DNA from: an uncultured Candidatus Sumerlaeota bacterium
Lineage (GTDB): Bacteria; Sumerlaeota; Sumerlaeia; MVZB01
Direction of reading: 5' to 3'
Assembly (NCBI GenBank): GCA_964473105.1
Contig: CAYYNQ010000097.1
Coordinates: 8,468 to 72,467, forward strand
DNA length: 64,000 nucleotides
Below are positions 12,688 to 51,915 of this stretch, in pieces; positions within the stretch are counted from its first letter, which is position 1; the number at the start of each line of letters is the position of its first letter. The position numbers were made by a program, and so were the translations under genes. The notes beneath the pieces are model-generated. The model did not search any database. It saw nothing but the letters and a program-made list of their open reading frames with translations, and was not told where the DNA came from.

Positions 12688-13389
12688 CTACTGGGATTGG
12701 ATCACCAGGTAACCGGCGCGGTTCATATTGCCTGAACCTCCGGCACGATAGATGTTCCCCACACTTTTTGTCCCATTTGTCGGGTCATAGATTGTCCCCA
12801 GCAGGGCATTGGGATTCTGGTCAGCCTCGGCGAAAATTACCTGGATGTTGCTTTCCGGGTTGCCGGGTTCGGGTGGATCGGTCGGCCCGAAATTCGAGGT
12901 GAAACCCATCATCAGGTCCGGGCCGTTACTAATCAACAGCCACCAAGTTGCATTCTCACCGACGCTAATGTGGCCCAGGGTCTTGTTCCATGCAGATATC
13001 ATGCGTCCGTCCCGGGTCATCGGGTCCCACTGGTATGTGGTATACATCGTGCTATCATCACGACGCTCGACAAACGGATCCTGTATGTCCCCCGTGGTCA
13101 TATAGGCGATCGGTGTCGACAGCAGAAACAGGCTGTGGCTGCCATCCGGGTTGTTTCCGTCGATAAATTCACCAAAACCACTTGGCCAGCCGTTGTTATC
13201 CATGTGATAGGCCTCAATCGCGGTATTCAGGGAACGCATGTCGGTTTTGACACGGCTGACCTTGGATCGGGTCTGGGCTTCAAGGAAATTCGGCACGGCG
13301 ATGGCCGCAAGGATTGCAATGATAGCGACAACGATCAGTAGTTCAATTAACGTGAATCCGATTTTATCCCGAATGCTTAGGCTATTCAT
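12688..13389 (-). CDS. Prepilin-type N-terminal cleavage/methylation domain protein (DUF1559/H-X9-DG-like pseudopilin)
   Basis: 'GFTLIELLIVVAIIAILAAIAVPNF' class III signal/prepilin motif at the N-terminus. The ORF is open to 13434, but the Met before the prepilin leader is at 13389. Paralog of the gene at 49331-49996. Confidence 0.8.
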   Translation of the reverse strand: MNSLSIRDKIGFTLIELLIVVAIIAILAAIAVPNFLEAQTRSKVSRVKTDMRSLNTAIEAYHMDNNGWPSGFGEFIDGNNPDGSHSLFLLSTPIAYMTTGDIQDPFVERRDDSTMYTTYQWDPMTRDGRMISAWNKTLGHISVGENATWWLLISNGPDLMMGFTSNFGPTDPPEPGNPESNIQVIFAEADQNPNALLGTIYDPTNGTKSVGNIYRAGGSGNMNRAGYLVIQSQ

Positions 13390-13729
13390 TATATTTCTCC
13401 TATTTCGCAGATGATCCGCACTAGGTTCGTTCACCCTATGGTGGCCTGGGTTGGCCGGGGGGTGAGCGGAAGCTGTATGCTTTGAAATGGAAATCGGGCC
13501 ATCGAAAGCTTTCCTGCCCCGGGATGGTCCGGTTCAGGTTCAAAGGGTTTACTCTCAGCTCCGCATATGCGGGGCACCCCTAGCGTGGACTCAAGGATAG
13601 TGATTCCAAAATATCTGCGCAAGATGAAAAATATGGGAGGCATCGCTGTATTCAGGTTTATGGTCGGGCTCCGGCATTTTTGATGGCTGTTGGGAAGGGA
13701 GCAGTGAGGGAATGGAACCAAGAGTCTAG

Positions 13730-16175: not shown

Positions 16176-18620
16176 TCAATCGATTTGGCCCGGAGCCTGA
16201 AAATCCGTGTTGAGCGGTCCCCTGTATACCAGTTCGGCCTCCCGGAGCGTAATATGTTGTCTTCCATAATCACCGGGAACAAAATCTGTCATCCATGTTG
16301 GCAGCCTGCCATCGGTTCCTTCGTGGGCTATGGATCGAATGAACAGCATTTCAAAAGGTTTTTCGGATTTGAACATGATTCTGAATGTTTCTGGATCCCT
16401 TGAGTTAAATACCATCGAGCCGACCGCATTCTCACCTGGCGGGACGTAAATATAGACGACGGGCCATTGTCCCCGTGGCGCCAGCAGGTTTGCGCTACGG
16501 GTCCCACCGCCCTTCAGGCGGAGTTCGTATTCACCGGAGGGACTGTCCGGGCATGTAAACAGATGCTCCCGGGTGCCGGTCAGTCGGTATCCCTGTAGAA
16601 TCATGTTTTTGTATGACCGATGACCGGACCAGATCGTGGGCTGGATATGATGAACAAGGGGGTGGATGTAACGGAAGAGTCGTCGGATCGATTCTCCCTT
16701 CGTTTTGAAGGGGGAATCGCCGGGTGTCCTGATCTCGATATTGAATGGCAGAGTCCGCAGTGATTTATCCCCCGGCGTTATCCATGCATCCTTGATAGGA
16801 AAGACGTCGATGCGGTATTTCCCGTCAGGAAAATATTTGGGGACTTCAAATATGTATTCCACTGGTATGTGAGAATTTTGAGGGAGGCATAACACGCCTC
16901 CTGTCATGTAGGAAAAACCGCCTGTCCTGATAGGGACGGGAACTGGTTTGTCTAGGCCAAGATGCCACCATCGGAGACCCATTAACCTTGTCTGTTCAAG
17001 GTGTTTCCATGTTATTTCCAGTGCGAAGCTGGTTCCGCGGTCGATCGACAAGGTTTTATCGTCCAGGGAATACCGGTTGGCCGGGTATATCCCGCCTCCA
17101 GGCCAGATGACCCCCGGTTCCTCGATCAGTTGTTCCCGGTCGGGATTGACCGGATTCTGTGGCACCCGGCCGGCCCTTTCATCATTGTCGAACAAAATCC
17201 CGTTCGGTTCACCGGGCAGGCTTGCCCACCGGATCCAGCTGACGGATGCAAGATCAAACACTTTTGGATCAAAACGGTCGATTGAATAAAAGAACCGGCT
17301 CTCTGGGGTCTTGCTGATATTGCCGAAACCGGTTCCGGTGATCAGGCTGACAGATCCTTCCATATCGTCGTTATATGCCTGTTCGTCGACAGGGATGTGT
17401 TTGCGATATACATCCACTACCTGTTCTATCTCGGGGCGCGGTTCAGCCGGATGTCCGAGTCTGGGGCCCAGTGGGTATAAAATCATGACCAGGGCGATGC
17501 AAGACAGGATACCCATGAAGGTTTCCACCGGCCTGCCGCGGGGCAGATGCCGGGACAACCTTGTTTCCTGCGCCGTAAAATTATTCCAGGCAATGGCGGC
17601 AAGGAGAAACATCTGATCCATTCCCCAGGCGGCCAGTGCCATTCCGGGAATGAGCAGATGACAAAAGTTGTAGACATTGATGTTGACGAGTAAATAGAAG
17701 CAAACCAATGCCGTGATGGCCGTGACCTGAAAAATCCACGGCGAGCGGAAGAGGCCGATCAATGCAAAAAAGATACCCGGCATGGTGAAGACCAGGACGA
17801 TCCGGGACAGGTACACCTTGTCCCAGAGTGTGGTTCCGAACCAACTCGCAAAATCGATATAGGTCACCCTGAACTGGTCTTTGAAAGAAAGCGCAATCTG
17901 GACTGGGTTGATATTGATCATCGCAAGAACGAAGGCGGTGGCGGCGATGATCAATATCAAAGCCACGATTCGCGTGCTTCGGGAGAGCCGACGTCCGCAA
18001 AGCAGGGCCAATAGAACGGACGGTAGCCAGACAAGCGAGGTTAACTTGGCAAGGGCTGAAAACATCAAAAGGAGGATCATGCAGAGCAACGGCCCGTATG
18101 TGTATCGGTTCTGTTGATGCAGTCTGAAGAAGAAAACCAATGCTCCGGCCTGGAACAGAAGGGCGAGTGGTTCGGCTAGGATAAGGCGGGAAATATCGGC
18201 ATGGAATGGATTCAAGCCGATCGCTGCGGTGAAAAACAGCGTGATTCGTCGGCGCGAGGCAATGGTTGTTGCCGGGCGGGCGGTGGCCATGAAAACTGCC
18301 AGCGCGGCCAGCAGGATAGTCAGTATGCTGAAGATGACGTTATAGGTGCGTGCAAGCGTCCATATTTCACAATTGAAAATCCGGCAGAGGCCGGAGGTTT
18401 TCCCGCTGATCCATGGAAGAATCTGAAGCTCGAGCCAGGATCTTCCGACATGGATAGATCCGGAACCGTCCATGATACGCTCAGTGAAAACATGGCTGGA
18501 ACGTTGCCGATCGGCCGGAAAATCGACTGGCGGCATGTCCAGTTGATTGGATCGGATATAAAGGGAGGCTACAAGAATCAGGAGGAATATTGGCCAGAAA
18601 CCCCGGCGGCTTTCGAGCAT
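16176..18620 (-). CDS. Large integral-membrane protein with C-terminal extracytoplasmic domain (putative GT-C fold glycosyltransferase, YfhO/ArnT/PMT-like)
   Basis: 815-856 aa. The N-terminal roughly 420 aa contain at least 10 predicted hydrophobic helices, and the C-terminal roughly 430 aa are soluble. It sits inside the glycan cluster. Start chosen at the Met at 18620 (MLESRRGFWPIFLLI); the ORF is open to 18746, which would overlap the DegT gene. Confidence 0.45.
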   Translation of the reverse strand: MLESRRGFWPIFLLILVASLYIRSNQLDMPPVDFPADRQRSSHVFTERIMDGSGSIHVGRSWLELQILPWISGKTSGLCRIFNCEIWTLARTYNVIFSILTILLAALAVFMATARPATTIASRRRITLFFTAAIGLNPFHADISRLILAEPLALLFQAGALVFFFRLHQQNRYTYGPLLCMILLLMFSALAKLTSLVWLPSVLLALLCGRRLSRSTRIVALILIIAATAFVLAMININPVQIALSFKDQFRVTYIDFASWFGTTLWDKVYLSRIVLVFTMPGIFFALIGLFRSPWIFQVTAITALVCFYLLVNINVYNFCHLLIPGMALAAWGMDQMFLLAAIAWNNFTAQETRLSRHLPRGRPVETFMGILSCIALVMILYPLGPRLGHPAEPRPEIEQVVDVYRKHIPVDEQAYNDDMEGSVSLITGTGFGNISKTPESRFFYSIDRFDPKVFDLASVSWIRWASLPGEPNGILFDNDERAGRVPQNPVNPDREQLIEEPGVIWPGGGIYPANRYSLDDKTLSIDRGTSFALEITWKHLEQTRLMGLRWWHLGLDKPVPVPIRTGGFSYMTGGVLCLPQNSHIPVEYIFEVPKYFPDGKYRIDVFPIKDAWITPGDKSLRTLPFNIEIRTPGDSPFKTKGESIRRLFRYIHPLVHHIQPTIWSGHRSYKNMILQGYRLTGTREHLFTCPDSPSGEYELRLKGGGTRSANLLAPRGQWPVVYIYVPPGENAVGSMVFNSRDPETFRIMFKSEKPFEMLFIRSIAHEGTDGRLPTWMTDFVPGDYGRQHITLREAELVYRGPLNTDFQAPGQID

Positions 18621-18684
18621 GCCGAAATGGTGTTCACGGTTGCGCCATTGAATGACAGGGCTGTCATGAGAATCCGTCACAGAT

Positions 18685-19863
18685 TCAATTTTGACCGGAC
18701 AAGAAATTTTGAATATTTTCAACGACGTAGTGTTGTTGAGACTCATTTAATTCGGGAAAGATCGGGAGTGCGAGTGCCTCCCGGCTAGCCTGTTCACTGA
18801 TGGGCATCATGCCTTTGCGGTAGCCGTGGTTCTTAAAGCAGGGCTGGAGGTGCAAGGGGAGTCCATAATATACATTGCAACCGATCCCGTTTTCCCTCAA
18901 GCAGGCCAAGAGTCCATCGCGTCTTTCCGGGTGCACGCGGATGACATACTGATGATACACATGGTTTTCAGAGATTGTCACAGCCGGGAATACGGTCGTC
19001 GGATCTAGCTGATCGGGGGATTGTGAACAGATGCCAGCCTCGCTGAGCAGCCGCCCATACCGGGCGGCATTCTCTGCCCTTGCCCGGCACCAGTCCTCCA
19101 GTAGAGGCAGTTTGACTCTGAGGACGGCAGCCTGCAGTGCGTCCAGTCGGGAATTGATTCCCAAAATCTCATGAATATACTGGCCGGTTTGGCCGTGGTG
19201 TCGCAACAGGCGCAGTTTCATACCCAGTTTCTCATCATGGCAGGTCATGAGGCCACCGTCCCCGAAACAACCTAGGTTTTTAGATGGAAAGAAACTGAAA
19301 CACCCGATATCACCCACTGTGCCGGCCTTTTTGCCATGCCAGGTTGCCCCAATTGCCTGGGCGGTGTCCTCAATTATTGCAATATCGTTCCCGACCTTCA
19401 GGTCCAGGAGTCTCTGCATATCGACACACTGGCCAAAAATATGGACGGGGATGATGACTCGCGTGCGGGGTGTGATCAGCGATTCAAGTAGACGGGTATC
19501 CATGTTGAAGCTGACCGGGTCAATATCACAGAAGACCGGTTTTAAGCCAAGGCGTACGATGGCTCCAACAGTTGCAAAAAAAGTGTAGGGGGATGTGATG
19601 ACCTCATCGCCAGGTTTCAAATCCAGGGCCATTAATGCGATTAGCAGTGCATCTGAACCTGAGGCGCAACCAATTGCATGAGATGAACCAAGCCATTCCG
19701 AGATCTCCTTTTCGAATAATTCCACCTCGGATCCCAAGACAAACCGCTGGGACTCAATAATACGCCGGACGGAAGATTCGATAGATTCCCTTATGGTCTC
19801 ATACTGTGATCCGAGATCCAGCATTTTGACGGAAGTGACTGGGTTGATTTGTTGTGAACTCAT
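18685..19863 (-). CDS. DegT/DnrJ/EryC1/StrS-family PLP-dependent sugar aminotransferase
   Basis: 'GSEVELFEKEISEWLGSSHAIGCASGSDAL' and 'FSFFPSKNLGCFGDGG' (PLP-lysine region). 392 aa. Confidence 0.85.
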   Translation of the reverse strand: MSSQQINPVTSVKMLDLGSQYETIRESIESSVRRIIESQRFVLGSEVELFEKEISEWLGSSHAIGCASGSDALLIALMALDLKPGDEVITSPYTFFATVGAIVRLGLKPVFCDIDPVSFNMDTRLLESLITPRTRVIIPVHIFGQCVDMQRLLDLKVGNDIAIIEDTAQAIGATWHGKKAGTVGDIGCFSFFPSKNLGCFGDGGLMTCHDEKLGMKLRLLRHHGQTGQYIHEILGINSRLDALQAAVLRVKLPLLEDWCRARAENAARYGRLLSEAGICSQSPDQLDPTTVFPAVTISENHVYHQYVIRVHPERRDGLLACLRENGIGCNVYYGLPLHLQPCFKNHGYRKGMMPISEQASREALALPIFPELNESQQHYVVENIQNFLSGQN

Positions 19864-44993: not shown

Positions 44994-45680
44994 TCATTGC
45001 GGGTGGGTATTGGTGCGGCCCTGGACAAGACGTACGGTTCCATCCGCGTAGAGGGCATGCTCGATATCCAGATCAGTTCCCCATGGATAGCCGAAGTCTG
45101 CCGGGTAGTTCGGGAACAATCCGCCGTAAAAACCATCCAAGGGGCCAAGGTAAAGATCTCTCACCATCCACACGTTGCCTTCCATGATATTTCCGGCACC
45201 GCCTTCGTGCCCCCCTGAGCTGACTGCCGAACTGTTATATGCGTAACGGAAATTATGGTAGCGTGGATGACCGCCACGTATTGTCTCGCCGTCTGGGTAG
45301 AGTCTCAGGTAATGGGGATTGAACATGGTATGCCAGTCACCTAGGTATTTCAGTTCAAGCAGGATCCAGGGCAGGCCATCCCAGGATCCCCCCGCAGCTG
45401 GGGCATTGCCGGTTTGAAAATATTCCGGACCGCTCGATGAAAACGGACCGGCTTCGTGGTCTGCGGGTGGCAGGGTATTGTGATCGACCTGATAGGTCTG
45501 TAGCGCAATGGCGATCGTGTGCAGGTTGCCTGCATTGGCAGCGCGGAGGCCGCGTTCCCGGGCGTCGTGGAAATTGACAACCGCGACGGCTGCCAGGATT
45601 CCGATGATCATTACGACCACCAGGAGTTCGATCAGCGTGACCCCCCTCATATCATCTGGTTTGTGGCAGGTTTCTGGCAA
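44994..45680 (-). CDS. Prepilin-type N-terminal cleavage/methylation domain protein (DUF1559-like pseudopilin)
   Basis: 'RGVTLIELLVVVMIIGILAAVAVVNF' prepilin leader/TM; 228 aa. The likely start is the internal Met at 45650. Confidence 0.8.
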   Translation of the reverse strand: MPETCHKPDDMRGVTLIELLVVVMIIGILAAVAVVNFHDARERGLRAANAGNLHTIAIALQTYQVDHNTLPPADHEAGPFSSSGPEYFQTGNAPAAGGSWDGLPWILLELKYLGDWHTMFNPHYLRLYPDGETIRGGHPRYHNFRYAYNSSAVSSGGHEGGAGNIMEGNVWMVRDLYLGPLDGFYGGLFPNYPADFGYPWGTDLDIEHALYADGTVRLVQGRTNTHPQ

Positions 45681-45829: not shown

Positions 45830-47194
45830 TTATCGATAACCTGTCCAGGCACGGCTCGTGTTTGCCGTCGGCAACGTGCTTGTGAAATGGAGCTGGCCCT
45901 CGGTCAGGCTGATACTGTCCTCCCATACGACATATATTTCGTCGCATCCACCCATCGCTATGACCGGACGGTTCCAAGTTCCGGTGAGTTCCTCAGTCAG
46001 GTCGACCTCATGCTCGACGAAATTTTCTTGGGGATCATAACGGATATATCGGACACTTCTCCGGGGTGTATTGGCACTGACATACACCATGTGGAATTTT
46101 CCGTTGGAATCAACGACCGCTGAGGGCTGTTGCTGAAGGCCATCCTCGTTTGTCACCCGGATCTCCGTATCCAGAATGGATGAATCAACCGTATATTTCT
46201 GGATGATGATTTCGTCACTGCCCGTCGCGATACGGTCAACAAACAACAACCAACGATTATCGTTTCCGGGTTCCTCGACCCAGCGCGGAGGATCAAAAAA
46301 ACCGCTGACGTTGGACCGGTGCAGGCCCATCGCAATCCAGTTTTTGGCTTCGGGGTCATAACGTCCGGTATATAGGCTGGCCGGGGCACCCGTTGTGCCC
46401 GTCACCCAGCACAAGTGCAGGATGCCATTTGGATCGGCCGAGATATCCGGGACTGTGAACGGTTGGTTTTCGTCACCGGCTGCCCGGTCCGCAGGGGTTG
46501 TTAGACGCAGGCTGGCCATAGAGGGTGGCAGCGCTGGCCATGAACCGTCAGGGTTGCTCAGCCCCAGCATAATCTCGGACTTGTCCACATCCCAGTGAAA
46601 ATCATACCAGGTCAGTGCAATTCGTCCGTCGCCCAGGAGTGCCGTCCGGGGATTGAAACCGTTGTCACCGTTCGAGACACTGCCCGAGTCTGTCAGGCGC
46701 AGGTTGTTCATGGCAAGGCCCTGGCTTGTGAAACGGTCGGTGAATATCTCCTGGTTGTCGTTCCAGCCCGCCCCGGCGGATCCGTGTCGGTGATCGTGCC
46801 AGAAAACCTGTAGTTCCTGACTGGAATCAACGATGATGGAAGGGATGCGTCCCCCCAAGCTTTCGCCCGTGACGGCCATCGATTGATCGACTCTTTGACG
46901 GGGTAGCCATCCTGTCATCGTTTTCCATTGCCGGATAAAAACTCGACTGGGGTCACTGATGGTGGTCTGTTCGAGTCCTTGCCAGTAGACAAGCGTGAGT
47001 CCGTGGGCCGGGGTCCAGATCAGCGTGCCCTGGGGGTTTCGCGCAAGCCGGTTGCGTTCGGTCGGGTCGTCAGGCGAGGTGAACTCGACAACCGGGCGGA
47101 AATTTATTTGCGCGCAGGTTCCCCGGATCATGGTCATGAAGATCAGTAGGCAAACAAGTAAATGCCCTTTGATAGATATGATCTTCCATGACAT
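45830..47194 (-). CDS. Secreted hypothetical protein (beta-rich, possible beta-propeller)
   Basis: Signal peptide 'MSWKIISIKGHLLVCLLIFMTMIRGTCAQ' and a beta-rich domain of about 430 aa with W/G/D-rich repeats. The ORF is open to 47224. Confidence 0.5.
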   Translation of the reverse strand: MSWKIISIKGHLLVCLLIFMTMIRGTCAQINFRPVVEFTSPDDPTERNRLARNPQGTLIWTPAHGLTLVYWQGLEQTTISDPSRVFIRQWKTMTGWLPRQRVDQSMAVTGESLGGRIPSIIVDSSQELQVFWHDHRHGSAGAGWNDNQEIFTDRFTSQGLAMNNLRLTDSGSVSNGDNGFNPRTALLGDGRIALTWYDFHWDVDKSEIMLGLSNPDGSWPALPPSMASLRLTTPADRAAGDENQPFTVPDISADPNGILHLCWVTGTTGAPASLYTGRYDPEAKNWIAMGLHRSNVSGFFDPPRWVEEPGNDNRWLLFVDRIATGSDEIIIQKYTVDSSILDTEIRVTNEDGLQQQPSAVVDSNGKFHMVYVSANTPRRSVRYIRYDPQENFVEHEVDLTEELTGTWNRPVIAMGGCDEIYVVWEDSISLTEGQLHFTSTLPTANTSRAWTGYR

Positions 47195-47228
47195 GTGGAA
47201 TGATCTTTCCCTTGGATCCTTCATGGGG

Positions 47229-48551
47229 TTATTCCAAGATGAAGCTTGTCAGGCAGATCGGTACGGTTACGCCGAAGGTTTGCAACCCGCTGGGTCCGCC
47301 GAAACTCGCCGTGTGCACGTAAACCCCGCCGACTTTATCGATGGTAACTCCCCCGGTATAGGAGCCATTGATCTGATCAAGTACATTGCCGTTGACCGGG
47401 TCAATAATGTAGAGGTTGTTGGCCCCGGTTGCATAAATGATGTCATTGGCAGCTGCCATATAATTTCGGAACAAGTAACCGAAACTGACGATCGTGGCCT
47501 TGAATATCTCGTCACCAGTGTTACGGTGGAATGCCCATAGCAGGGCATCACCGGTCCCGGCAAACCCTCCGCCCCAGACATAAACCGCGTTCCCGATCAC
47601 CAGTGGCGGGTTGTCGCTGATAGGTGCGACAACCTGCCATTCAAGTTCACCCGTCAGAGCATCCGCGCAGACCAGTATTCCCAGAGTGTCGGTGAAGTTG
47701 TGTCCCACTGCGTAGAGCCGTTTGTCCTCAACGGTCATGGAGCCGGTCAGGATATACGGATCTACCGTCCATGGCGCAGTCGGGTCGATATTGCTTTGCC
47801 AGATGGGCGCGCCCGTCGCTGCATCGTAGCAGATCACATTGTCCGGACCGGCCGTTGTGAAGATACTTGAAGGGCTTCCTGCAAGGAATGGTGGTGTGGC
47901 TGTCCCGGGTCCACGGTCATGCCTGAACCAGGCGACCTCCCCGGTAACAAGATCGAGTGCAACGGTTTGCTTGGAATCGTTGGTGAATCCGCCGTAGGTT
48001 TCGATAAATGCCATCCCTTCGCCGATCTGGGGTGAGGCGTTGACAAAATCAAAATCGGTCAGCCCAGGGGTTGTATTGGTATTGTCGATCACGGTCGACC
48101 AGATAATTTTTCCGTCCGCCTGATCGAGCTTGTAGACGGTGCGTCCTGTAGCGTAGACAAGTGCATTATCGGCATCATCGATGACAACGCCGGTTGATGA
48201 CTGGAACGGAAGGGACAGTCCTTGGTCAAGCGGTGGCGACCGCCAGGTCAATTCTCCGGTCCGGGCGTGCAGAGCAATAACCATCACGGCAGTTGTCGGG
48301 TTGGCAGTGTGTACCGGGCTGTAGATATAAGGGTCCGATACGGTAACCCGTGCATTGGAGACGATGTCGAGGTCCGGTCGAGACCACAGGCCCCCGCTAC
48401 TGAAGCTGGTGAGTTGCGCAGGGATGTCAACCAAGGCGTTATTTCCGGGGGTGCGGTGGTTGGAGTGCCACGCATTTTGTGCTTGGAGCATGGTCACGGA
48501 GAGGATGACAGCCAAACAGGTTGCCAATCGGGGTGCAAAGGTCTTCATCAT
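47229..48551 (-). CDS. PQQ-like beta-propeller repeat protein (BamB/PilY1-C-like), secreted
   Basis: Signal peptide 'MMKTFAPRLATCLAVILSVTMLQAQ'. Repeated 'A-x-D-x-x-T/G-G-x-x-x-W' blades ('YKLDQADGKIIWST', 'ALDLVTGEVAWFR', 'CYDAATGAPIWQS', 'CADALTGELEWQV'). Confidence 0.7.
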   Translation of the reverse strand: MMKTFAPRLATCLAVILSVTMLQAQNAWHSNHRTPGNNALVDIPAQLTSFSSGGLWSRPDLDIVSNARVTVSDPYIYSPVHTANPTTAVMVIALHARTGELTWRSPPLDQGLSLPFQSSTGVVIDDADNALVYATGRTVYKLDQADGKIIWSTVIDNTNTTPGLTDFDFVNASPQIGEGMAFIETYGGFTNDSKQTVALDLVTGEVAWFRHDRGPGTATPPFLAGSPSSIFTTAGPDNVICYDAATGAPIWQSNIDPTAPWTVDPYILTGSMTVEDKRLYAVGHNFTDTLGILVCADALTGELEWQVVAPISDNPPLVIGNAVYVWGGGFAGTGDALLWAFHRNTGDEIFKATIVSFGYLFRNYMAAANDIIYATGANNLYIIDPVNGNVLDQINGSYTGGVTIDKVGGVYVHTASFGGPSGLQTFGVTVPICLTSFILE

Positions 48552-49122
48552 GTGATTCCACGCATCCAGTCAGGAGATCATGATCTTTTTCCGGAATGGG
48601 GATCCGGGCGGTTCACGGCCCGGGACTTCGGGACGAGATCTGGATCAATGACCAGAGGCCCCATTCCCCGGACAGAAATGCTTGCGCTGAGTAAATCGTG
48701 GCAGTGGAAAAGGGTGTCGAGATTTCCGGAACAAGACCACTCATCCGCTGGCCGGTTAGCCTACGTTAGACGGATGAAAACTGTCTGATTGAGCCGGATA
48801 CCGCTGTCCTCTTAACACACGAAAAAAACAGGGCAACAGGCTTCCGTACGCCGGTCTTCTGGCTTCCGGATCATCCTACCGGCCGTCCCTTCCCGGTAAT
48901 ATTTTACCAGTGGTTCTGACGACTTTCGTCCCCGGTCACAGCGGCGTGTCCGCGGTGGTTTTGCACCACCTTCCCTTACACGCACGGAAGTCAACATATG
49001 TCCGGTGACATACTAACCACGGAGGCAGGACGGAGTCAACTGGTTGTTTTTTGCATAAGCGCGAGCGCTCGATATTGTGGAGGCACACCCCTATTTTTCT
49101 TTTGCGGAGGGGCTACGGGGGG

Positions 49123-49128
49123 TATAAT
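49123..49128 (+). promoter_or_regulatory. Putative -10 element (TATAAT) for tRNA-Pro
   Basis: TATAAT at 49123-49128, 23 bp upstream of the tRNA 5' end. A weak -35-like 'TTTGCG' lies 16 bp upstream of the -10. Confidence 0.4.
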
Positions 49129-49150
49129 GTAATCCCTGTGTCTGCCTGGG

Positions 49151-49226
49151 TTAAAGGGTCGTCGGGGTGTAGCGCAGTTGGTAGCGTGCACGGTTCGGGA
49201 TCGTGAGGTCGCTGGTTCAAGTCCAG
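49151..49226 (+). tRNA. tRNA-Pro (anticodon CGG), CCA encoded
   Basis: Folded manually. Acceptor CGGGGTG/CACCCCG, D-arm GCGC-AGTTGGTA-GCGT, anticodon stem CACGG/TCGTG with loop TTCGGGA (anticodon CGG), T-arm GCTGG-TTCAAGT-CCAGT, discriminator A, then CCA. 76 nt. Confidence 0.9.
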
Positions 49227-49330
49227 TCACCCCGACCACTTTGCCCATCTTTTTAACCAACTCTTCGCCGCTGCTGGATATTTGAAGATGGTAAACGTTC
49301 TGGGGGCAGGTCAATCGCCGACAGGTCGTC

Positions 49331-49996
49331 CTATTGATCATATCCGACGTAAGTGTTTCCCTTTCCACCGACAAAACCAATACCTCCAACCCAATGGATA
49401 TCGCCATTACTGATGGTGCCGTTGGTCGGGTCATAGATCGTGCTGCGGTCGTGAGCCCAGACGCTCTGATTCGGACCGGGTGAGGTAAACCACCAGCCTT
49501 CATACTGTTCCCGCCGAATGGCAGGGCGCGTGTAGCCGAATATCGCAGTATGGGTCAGGTCATAACTCAGCAGGACTGCAAGATCCTTGATCGACTCAAA
49601 ATGATGGGCGGCAACCCCTGCCCAGAAGGGGTCGTAGGGAATATCTGATATGTATGACACGGGGGTGGTGAGTTGGCTTCCTATCATGCGGGCGATGGTT
49701 CCATCCCGTAGCAGCATTTTCAGATGCCCTCCGGTGCCGGCGGAGTTTGTCGGTTCAGGTTCAGGCCAGGCGGGGTTGAGATGACGATTATTATCAACGC
49801 GGTAAATCTCCATAGCCACGACGATGCTGCGAATATCGGTCATCAGTCGGCTTACCTTTGACCGCGTTTGTGCTTCCAGAAAATTGGGCACGGCAATCGC
49901 TGCCAGGATTGTGATGATCGCCACGACGATTAAAAGCTCAATGAGGGTAAAAGCCTTTTTTATTTTTAGTCCTTCCAACCTGAAATATGGGCTCAA
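49331..49996 (-). CDS. Prepilin-type N-terminal cleavage/methylation domain protein (DUF1559-like), paralog of 12688-13389
   Basis: 'AFTLIELLIVVAIITILAAIAVPNFLEAQTRSKVSR' is nearly identical to the N-terminus of the 12688 gene. Both also share a C-terminal 'TIYDPTNGT' block. Confidence 0.8.
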   Translation of the reverse strand: MSPYFRLEGLKIKKAFTLIELLIVVAIITILAAIAVPNFLEAQTRSKVSRLMTDIRSIVVAMEIYRVDNNRHLNPAWPEPEPTNSAGTGGHLKMLLRDGTIARMIGSQLTTPVSYISDIPYDPFWAGVAAHHFESIKDLAVLLSYDLTHTAIFGYTRPAIRREQYEGWWFTSPGPNQSVWAHDRSTIYDPTNGTISNGDIHWVGGIGFVGGKGNTYVGYDQ

Positions 49997-50186
49997 TATC
50001 TATATGCGTCTTAACTCCTTATATTATAAATTTCCGTGGCCACCACTGTCGACAGTTTTCAGGCGAAGATGGCTGGGGTAAATAATTCCTCCAGCGGATC
50101 TCAGTGGCGTGTGCAAGGATTGTAGCGCTATAATAATGTGTCTGTAAAACGTTGAATCAATGAAGATCAAAGACTCCGATTAAGAA

Positions 50187-50209
50187 TTCAAGTCCAGTCA
50201 CCCCGACCA
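50187..50209 (+). repeat. 23-bp exact direct repeat of the tRNA-Pro 3' end (attR-like)
   Basis: 'TTCAAGTCCAGTCACCCCGACCA' at 50187-50209 is identical to tRNA positions 49204-49226. Flanking bases differ. Confidence 0.8.
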
Positions 50210-50364
50210 TTCCCTCGATTGACCCTGTTGGATTTAATAATCTCCTGAAATGCCTATGGCCATTCAGTCTAATCATTCTGGCCTTTTGGGGAAAATTGAC
50301 CGATAAAAAATGGGCTGTCAGGGAGTTGTTCCGCTTTCATTTCGCGTAAAATACGCGAGGCGGA

Positions 50365-51405
50365 TTACCCTCGGGGCTTGAAGTGGGAAACCTTATCCAA
50401 TCTTTCGTAGAGATCTTTCTCCTGTGTTGAGGGGTTTGATGGAACTTGGATATGAACCTTCAGGTAAAGATCGCCCTTGCCGTCCTTTTTTTTCTTCCAA
50501 CCTTTTCCCCGGATACGTAGTCGTTTCCCAGTCTGGATGCCAGGCGGAACCTTCAGGTCCACATTCCCATCCATGGTTGAGACCGAGATTGTGGTCCCAA
50601 GCACCGCCTCGGATGGGCTCAATGGCAATCCCACCTCCAAGTTGTCACCCTTCAGCGTGAACCGGGGGTGTGTTGTGATATGGATCCTGATCAGGATGTC
50701 GCCGGCTGACCCGTGATCTCTCGAGTTACCCTGACCCCGCAGTCGCATCACTTGGTCGTCCCGGATTCCCGGCGGGATCTTGACGCCGTATGTTTTTCTT
50801 CTTGGGGTGTTGTCGTCGCCGGTTTGTTGGAAACTGATAGAGCGTTGCGCCCCCAGATATGCATCCTCAAGGCTGATTGTCAGTGAGGTCTCCACATCAT
50901 TGCCGGATCGTGTCTTTGTTCTCCTCTCTGTTGCCTGTTGTTGTATGAAAGAGGGTCCTGACCTGACATGTGTGAAAGGGTCATGATTCACTTTGCCGAA
51001 TGGATTGCCGGCGTTTGGAGATTCCGGGTGGTGCTGAGCGAACATGCCGGTGAAAAGAGTATCAAAGAAATCACTGAAATTGCCTTGGTTTCCAGTTGTT
51101 TCCATTTTGGATTGACCCGAACCCATCCGTCCGCCGAAGACGTTGGAGAAATCCTCGGCCCTGAACTGCTGGCCGTGTTTCCAATTTGCCCCCAAGGTAT
51201 TGAATCGATGCCGCTTATCAGGGTCGCCCAGCACCTCGTACGCCTCGTTGATCTCCTTGAATTTGTCCTCCATCTGTTTGTTTCCGCCATTGCGGTCGGG
51301 GTGATATTTACCGGCAAGTTTACGGAAAGCCTTCTTGATCTGGTCTTGGCTGGCGCTTCGGTCGACCCCAAGAATTTTATAATAGTCTTTATAGGTAACC
51401 GACAT
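50365..51405 (-). CDS. DnaJ-domain co-chaperone, CbpA-like (no zinc-finger domain)
   Basis: J-domain 'DYYKILGVDRSASQDQIKKAFRKLAGKYHPDRN' with the HPD tripeptide, plus C-terminal CTD I/II beta domains. No CxxCxGxG repeats. The ORF is open to 51546; start taken at MSVTYKDYY (51405). Confidence 0.8.
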   Translation of the reverse strand: MSVTYKDYYKILGVDRSASQDQIKKAFRKLAGKYHPDRNGGNKQMEDKFKEINEAYEVLGDPDKRHRFNTLGANWKHGQQFRAEDFSNVFGGRMGSGQSKMETTGNQGNFSDFFDTLFTGMFAQHHPESPNAGNPFGKVNHDPFTHVRSGPSFIQQQATERRTKTRSGNDVETSLTISLEDAYLGAQRSISFQQTGDDNTPRRKTYGVKIPPGIRDDQVMRLRGQGNSRDHGSAGDILIRIHITTHPRFTLKGDNLEVGLPLSPSEAVLGTTISVSTMDGNVDLKVPPGIQTGKRLRIRGKGWKKKKDGKGDLYLKVHIQVPSNPSTQEKDLYERLDKVSHFKPRG

Positions 51406-51915
51406 TCGGAACTCATCCAGATTAGATTCAACGTTTTGGAGCGATGATTGCAACCCCAGGCACCATCTAAATATCGTCCAATTCAACCCGCGGAGCAAGT
51501 TTTTAGATATAAGGGCCATTATTTCATTTGCATTTTGTATAAGCAAGGATGCAGAATGTTGATAACAAAGTTTTTGGGGGATCTTGACGGGTGCATTGCG
51601 CCGGAAGGAAAGATTGAGTAAGAACGGGTTTACACCGCCGTTACATAGAGAGACCTGACAGAAGCGCTGATCGGGCAGGACCTGACCGGGTGACTTTTTG
51701 CAACGGCATGATCATGGGTTTTAACCGGCCAATCGGCCTGTTCGCGGCCTGCGTTTGCAGGCAATTTCCCGTTAGTCTCAATCACGATGAGGATCAAATC
51801 GTGGCCGTGTCGGCCTTTTCGTTACGGTTCAAATCGAGTCCGTTCCTCGTTGCATTGCACAAGTCAATCCACCCGAGCATATTCCAACTAGGGAAGGATT
51901 AAATATACCGATCAT

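Follow-up and report, generated by a model that had tools for sequence, protein, structure and literature searches.

A probable integrase-less remnant of site-specific integration, carrying one prepilin-type gene, at tRNA-Pro(CGG) of an uncultured Sumerlaeota bacterium

The window analysed here, a 64-kb stretch of DNA from an uncultured Sumerlaeota bacterium, contains one tRNA gene according to ARAGORN. This gene, an intact tRNA-Pro(CGG) with encoded CCA, lies at 49163-49238 on the plus strand (63 bits with Rfam RF00005) and is the putative integration target. Its terminal 23-mer, TTCAAGTCCAGTCACCCCGACCA, occurs at 49216-49238 (core copy 1, the attL core) and again, exactly and also on the plus strand, at 50187-50209 (core copy 2, the attR core, a displaced 3' fragment of tRNA-Pro). 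The exact 23-bp duplicate reported in an earlier note on this DNA was recovered, and its spacing of 960 bp is corrected to 971 bp from start to start, with 948 bp between the copies. The search for more copies proposed in the same note was run in the window, where only these two were found with up to 3 mismatches allowed, and the chance expectation was 0 (100 shuffles). Counted back from the encoded CCA, the 23-mer starts exactly at tRNA position 54, an assignment read from the sequence, and comprises 7 nt of the T-loop, 5 of the 3' T-stem, 7 of the 3' acceptor strand, 1 discriminator nucleotide, and the 3 of CCA.

The repeat has sharp borders. Local alignments of the flanks of the two cores (175 bp upstream and 160 bp downstream) scored close to chance, as the observed score was reached by a fraction of 0.41 of shuffles upstream and 0.62 downstream. 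A decayed duplicate of the tRNA gene was considered for core copy 2 and was ruled out because these flanks share no similarity. No terminal inverted repeats flank the segment at 49239/50186. The pairing of an intact tRNA gene with a displaced and equally oriented 3' fragment is a genuine signature of integration, as had been proposed earlier. At window position 49217, the universally conserved T-loop position 55 of tRNA-Pro, the metagenome contig L016 carries a T to G change in a sequence otherwise 99.9% identical over the surrounding 14.2 kb, which may reflect either an error in sequencing or a tRNA allele that is damaged. A number of Logan contigs likewise end within a few nucleotides of this position.

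The 948 bp between the cores, referred to as the cassette, hold one family-supported ORF on the minus strand at 49331-49978, or to 49996 with an alternative TTG start. It encodes a prepilin-type (type IV pilin-like or pseudopilin) protein of 215 aa, which exceeded the curated cut-offs of the prepilin N_methyl/GFxxxE test with 29.5 bits for Pfam N_methyl (PF07963; cut-off 21.2) and 30.8 bits for TIGR02532 (cut-off 16.3). The match to GspG (TIGR01710) covered the N-terminal 58 residues alone and, with 44 bits, stayed below the equivalog cut-off of 88.85. DUF1559/SBP_bac_10 (PF07596) was not matched at E<=0.01, leaving the former label "DUF1559-like" unconfirmed for this gene, and a sub-threshold match to PF07596 was seen only in the neighbouring ORF at 44994-45680. 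Non-coding arms of 92 bp on the left (49239-49330, beginning with CTTTGCCC) and 208 AT-rich bp on the right (49979-50186) complete the cassette. The right arm includes a promoter-like site for the pilin gene, TCGACA-18-TATAAT, on the minus strand at 50023-50052, which is called from its consensus match alone (11 of 12 positions). No significant repeated motifs of the kind expected for arm-type sites were detected in either arm.

The cassette haplotype of L021, L012, and L019/L020 diverges from that of the window by 0.6% in the mature coding part, compared with about 1% in the left arm and 5-7% in the right arm, which is the least conserved part and carries no special conservation. The difference between the coding part and the right arm indicates that the gene is constrained, and judged from these alignments it is probably functional and under purifying selection. 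The canonical start codon at 49961-49963 (minus strand) is ATG in L019, L020, and L021, ATA in the window, and ATT in L012. With ATG-AAA-AAG the protein begins MKKAFTLIELL; this one base thus has three alleles in sequences that differ by about 1-2%. Since the canonical ATG is changed in the window and in L012, both must start at an upstream TTG or GTG. GC content, GC3, and codon usage of the gene are typical of the window (all |z|<0.6), and the compositional comparison with the flanks suggested earlier therefore yielded a native rather than a foreign signal.

The earlier note had described the gene as a close paralog of the ORF at 12688-13434 (minus strand), with a near-identical N-terminus. 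The N-terminal ~45 residues are indeed near-identical, but overall identity is 37%, below the 51-55% found for homologues in other organisms, and the closeness did not hold. The other paralog in the window matches the cassette protein over its N-terminal 74 residues alone. The near-identical N-terminus is the family-wide pilin helix, and around 8000 database proteins scored E<1e-5. Neither a tRNA nor the 23-mer was found near the prepilin-type genes at 12688-13434 and 44994-45680, and no tRNA was found at the loci of the closest homologues (47-55% identity, with P0004, P0005, and P0006 at 47-53%). The proposal that tRNA-targeted mobile DNA drives the expansion of the paralog family is thus unsupported.

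Upstream of the tRNA, a cobalamin riboswitch was identified on the minus strand at 48832-49000 (Rfam RF00174, 99 bits), which is also present in the related contig L026 (583-751). It precedes an operon-like row on the same strand that consists of a PQQ_2 beta-propeller gene (47229-48551), a weakly BNR-like gene (45830-47224), and, at its end, the prepilin-type gene at 44994-45680. No recognised B12 transporter or B12-dependent enzyme occurs in this row, and the cobalamin riboswitch regulon is unusual here. At 16176-18746 (minus strand), within a cluster of glycosyltransferase, DegT, and acetyltransferase genes, an ORF of 856 aa has many predicted membrane-like stretches and no Pfam match.

Downstream of core copy 2, the intergenic right flank of the window (50210-50364) leads to a DnaJ/CbpA-like gene on the minus strand at 50365-51519 (Pfam DnaJ and DnaJ_C), and the right-hand neighbours are housekeeping genes, namely this gene, RNase G, MiaA, and Hfq. 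The DnaJ/CbpA-like gene is the edge of a block that is syntenic with a sister species (gene lists of L016 and L023). In the sister species contigs L023 and L024, where DnaJ is 71% identical, synteny extends from GT87 to DnaJ and is followed by full divergence, with no tRNA, pilin, or core at the locus; as synteny stops there, these contigs are uninformative on the insertion. RNase G was 51-64% identical to 8 Sumerlaeia/BRC1 MAG loci in a GTDB scan, none with a tRNA-Pro near RNase G, and these loci are too distant to inform on the insertion. RNase G had no exact match on record, and a metagenome scan with the DnaJ-like protein reached at best 32-34% identity. A search with the DnaJ C-terminus for contigs across the right junction recovered P0128/L025 alone, which ends 64 bp past the stop codon. 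In L025 the DnaJ/CbpA-like gene is called in two pieces at 190-390 and 503-1183 (66 aa and 226 aa), owing either to a frameshift in this allele or to a fault of the assembly.

Strain variants of the locus were retrieved as short metagenome contigs by exact or near-exact look-ups with the pilin protein and the PQQ-like protein of the left flank. Runs containing the organism are DRR683874, DRR683879, and SRR5002379, together with the reads underlying ERZ23495038, ERZ23495049, ERZ23495190, ERZ23491077, ERZ28654185, and ERZ17294133. The window arrangement (type A) was found in L016 (14.2 kb, 99.9% identity), L017, L018, and L102 (100%), and L021 (98%). Type B, represented by L019 from a TARA sample and by L020, matches the window at 97-98% identity through the left flank, tRNA, and cassette as far as position 50047, after which come an 11-nt filler, TGCGTCCTTGG, and the 3' end of DnaJ at 90% identity. 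The 307-bp segment at 50048-50354, including core copy 2, is thereby exchanged for these 11 nt. Compared with the window at 48995-50751, identity in L019 and L020 steps from 97-98% left of 50047 to 90% beyond the 307-bp deletion, in the coding sequence of DnaJ, which points to a breakpoint of inter-lineage recombination at the locus. Type C, represented by L012, comprises the tRNA 3' end, the cassette, and core copy 2 at 98% identity, followed in place of the DnaJ flank by 242 bp of unrelated DNA, hereafter X.

A cassette-free allele was found in L026, a relative with about 90% identity across 4.1 kb of left flank and with a right flank (X) that differs from that of the window. The cassette, its left arm included, is absent from this contig; tRNA-Pro(CGG) is intact with the T-loop TTCAAAT, and X, beginning with CTTTTTCT, follows directly. 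The X sequences of L012 and L026 are 91.7% identical over 241 aligned nt. Set against this arrangement of tRNA and X, the order tRNA, cassette, core, X in L012 shows the cassette plus one core to be an exact insertion or deletion at the tRNA 3' end, and the presence/absence polymorphism, read across the common flank X, is bounded exactly by the att cores. The comparison of empty and occupied sites called for in the earlier note was therefore positive. Among the retrieved contigs, an empty site of the window's own type (tRNA followed by TTCCCTCG) was not seen, and L026 could equally have lost the cassette through core-to-core deletion. Logan assemblies are built with k=31; if this applies, the L012 junction cannot be a k-mer artefact, as the shared 27 nt are shorter than k-1 and its X is 8% off the X of L026.

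Three different DNAs abut the core end, namely the cassette (CTTTGCCC), X (CTTTTTCT), and the DnaJ flank (TTCCCTCG), with no mutual similarity above chance. Almost identical cassette haplotypes are found with three right-hand contexts, in L021 (type A), L012 (type C), and L019/L020 (type B). A 29-aa ORF of X is not conserved in L026, where its ATG is changed to ATA, and is thus probably non-coding. L026 also carries about 77 additional bp that separate the riboswitch from the tRNA-Pro promoter region and lie between the bases aligned to window positions 49060 and 49053. Both L012, at its contig end, and L026, about 20 bp before its end, break near the same site in X (...CACAATTTGGACCA), around 240-260 bp after the core, which suggests that repeated or variable sequence starts there.

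None of the 20 window ORFs scanned against Pfam contained an integrase or transposase domain, and a profile built from ten tRNA-Pro-associated integrases had no match in six-frame ORFs of the window and related contigs; no integrase could be linked to this core. The earlier assumption of an integrase since lost is compatible with this count of zero. Neither a larger version of the element nor the cassette outside its present locus was found at homologue loci or in IMG/VR, phage records, and plasmids. The exact 23-mer had 0 matches in IMG/VR, as had patterns derived from X; a single 20-mer match belonged to an unrelated phage tRNA array and was rejected. BLAST with the cassette against phage records and against plasmids returned nothing, and BLAST with X against phage records matched the tRNA part and nothing else. 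A degenerate core yielded 77 matches at 76 IMG/VR loci, 43 within complete tRNAs and 34 as stand-alone fragments, which are tRNA-Pro 3' ends with the same T-stem/acceptor sequence. In all 10 stand-alone fragments tested as a positive control, the adjoining ORF was a tyrosine integrase. These fragments are of the anticodon-loop type and from other hosts, and they illustrate a complete element rather than the enzyme acting at this locus.

Taken together, the locus is probably an integrase-less remnant islet, left by integration of the tyrosine-integrase type at the T-loop/3' end of tRNA-Pro and carrying a single pilin-type cargo gene. A tDNA together with a displaced fragment marking the ends of an island is a published criterion (PMC4383910), and the insertion in L012 relative to L026, consisting of the cassette and one 23-mer, gives the occupied and empty pattern expected for integration at a tRNA 3' end (PMC4383910). 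The existence of a related bacterium without the cassette argues for a real but ordinary leftover of site-specific integration. Foreign DNA would have integrated site-specifically into the T-loop/3' end of tRNA-Pro(CGG) through a recombinase, most likely a tyrosine integrase, and the 23-bp copies would be the leftover core attachment sites. At attL the tRNA would be regenerated, while attR would hold the displaced tRNA tail 948 bp downstream. We infer that the initial insertion was the work of a tyrosine integrase and that a larger element has decayed to the present islet. What remains would be a single prepilin-type gene, a promoter-like site belonging to it, and the arms of 92 and 208 bp, presumably immobile by itself, with further change occurring through an integrase in trans or through recombination between the cores.

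The junctions at the core end also bear on two possible refinements of this reading. X may be a second island, in a tandem array ordered tRNA, cassette, core, X, core, and DnaJ flank, from which the window type would have arisen by site-specific excision of X, with L026 carrying X only. We hold this reading as tentative and would expect it to fail rather than to stand. After the core, CTTT opens both the cassette and X, and TTCC opens the DnaJ flank. X and the DnaJ flank replace each other at an exact junction, and the contigs of L012 and L026 stop at one shared point in X, as though a repeat began there; tandem accretion at att sites is also documented (PMC5704250). However, the 8% difference between the X sequences of L012 and L026 is close to the backbone level, as for resident DNA, and X, of which about 260 bp are known, opens with a T-rich tract resembling a native tRNA trailer when read from the sequence and has no match in IMG/VR or phage records. 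The two different right-hand contexts would likewise be explained, by a CIME-like or integron-cassette-like logic, if the islet were still mobile, as a one-gene cassette with a full-size attP (208-bp arm, 23-bp core, and 92-bp arm) that is excised as a 971-bp circle by an integrase encoded elsewhere and re-integrated. The junction of such a circle (attP) would read GATTAAGAA-TTCAAGTCCAGTCACCCCGACCA-CTTTGCCCATC, that is GATTAAGAA-core-CTTTGCCC, and an empty site would read GGTCGCTGG-core-TTCCCTCGATTG in the window background and GGTCGCTGG-core-CTTTTTCTCC in the type C background. Both cores are intact in every contig of types A and C, the same haplotype continues into the DnaJ flank in L021 or into X in L012 with junctions exactly at the core end, and the non-coding DNA of about 320 bp has the size of a complete lambda-type attP. 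Against these points stand the lack of an integrase in the window and related contigs, the weak conservation of the right arm (5-7% compared with 0.6% in the coding sequence), and arms without repeated motifs; moreover, neither a circular junction nor a second location in the genome was observed, and the cassette occurred only at its present locus. Continuing mobility therefore appears unlikely, and it is more doubtful still that the 971-bp unit works as a minimal mobile cassette, with one pilin-type gene and a complete tRNA-type attP, which a tyrosine integrase encoded elsewhere would shuttle in trans between tRNA-Pro sites of related lineages. If true, such a unit would amount to an integron-like exchange of surface/pseudopilin genes in an uncultured phylum.

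Two further explanations dispense with an integrase. The 23-mer could have arisen by local duplication or template switching, and the variants by homologous or illegitimate recombination between strains. The mosaic structure of type B, with its 97-98% identity up to 50047, 11-nt filler, and 90% identity in DnaJ, indicates that ordinary recombination acts at the locus, and the 23-bp core could serve as microhomology. The repeat, however, spans exactly the first T-loop nucleotide to CCA, which is the classical geometry of a tDNA fragment; the duplication extends to no further part of the tRNA or of its promoter, and stand-alone fragments of the same tRNA type elsewhere adjoin integrases, making a purely recombinational origin very unlikely. 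A direct repeat flanking a short segment, and nothing further, would also suit the target-site duplication of a transposon or MITE, a chance match, or an assembly artefact. This origin is effectively refuted, as terminal inverted repeats are lacking at 49239/50186, just inside the direct repeat, 23 bp is far longer than usual target duplications, the arrangement is reproduced in six independent contigs from at least five samples, and the chance expectation is 0.

Compared with known systems, the remnant islet resembles the islands catalogued by Islander (Hudson, Lau & Williams; PMC4383910) in that an intact tDNA and a 3' fragment in the same orientation lie on the same replicon, and in both the tRNA is restored by sequence of the element. 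Candidates that lack an integrase or fall below 2 kb are discarded by Islander (PMC4383910); its islands require an integrase inside or overlapping and a length of 2-200 kb, whereas the islet has no integrase, measures 0.97 kb (948 bp between the cores), and has a single gene as cargo. Insertion sequences and MITEs require terminal inverted repeats, which the islet lacks. With an integron cassette it shares one gene and one recombination site, a recombinase encoded elsewhere, and a gene that is promoter-proximal to nothing else; in contrast to such cassettes, it has no attC-type imperfect palindrome, IntI, or attI, and no inverted repeat was found in or beside the cassette arms. Its site is a tRNA 3' end, and it has its own promoter-like site. 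The attP/attB of mycobacteriophage Ms6 in tRNA-Ala (PMC1762012) has a similar T-loop-type att core, but the Ms6 core also spans the 5' T-stem and its integrase is known (PMC1762012), whereas identity in the islet starts at the loop and its recombinase is inferred.

A cis-mobilizable element (CIME), a decayed ICE or IME that keeps attL and attR (Guedon et al. 2017, PMC5704250), is alike in that both att cores are kept and genes for integration and transfer are missing, and also in that other DNA adjoins one att site in a related strain (type C, with 242 bp of X known). The CIME-like label refers to the att cores and the missing genes, and ICE/IME ancestry is not part of the likeness. The islet is far smaller than described CIMEs, its host is an uncultured Sumerlaeota bacterium instead of a streptococcus, and no helper element or integrase for it was found in the window or related contigs. 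The locus indicates that a real insertion can be marked by a tRNA-fragment signature that falls far short of the size and integrase thresholds applied by island finders, and it documents such a case in the uncultured phylum Sumerlaeota (BRC1), from which little mobile DNA is known. With three kinds of right-hand junction at one 23-bp core and a fourth allele in which the core is deleted, it offers a concrete place for a read-level test of att-bounded single-gene exchange. The islet leaves the known picture of island formation unchanged and belongs to a known kind.
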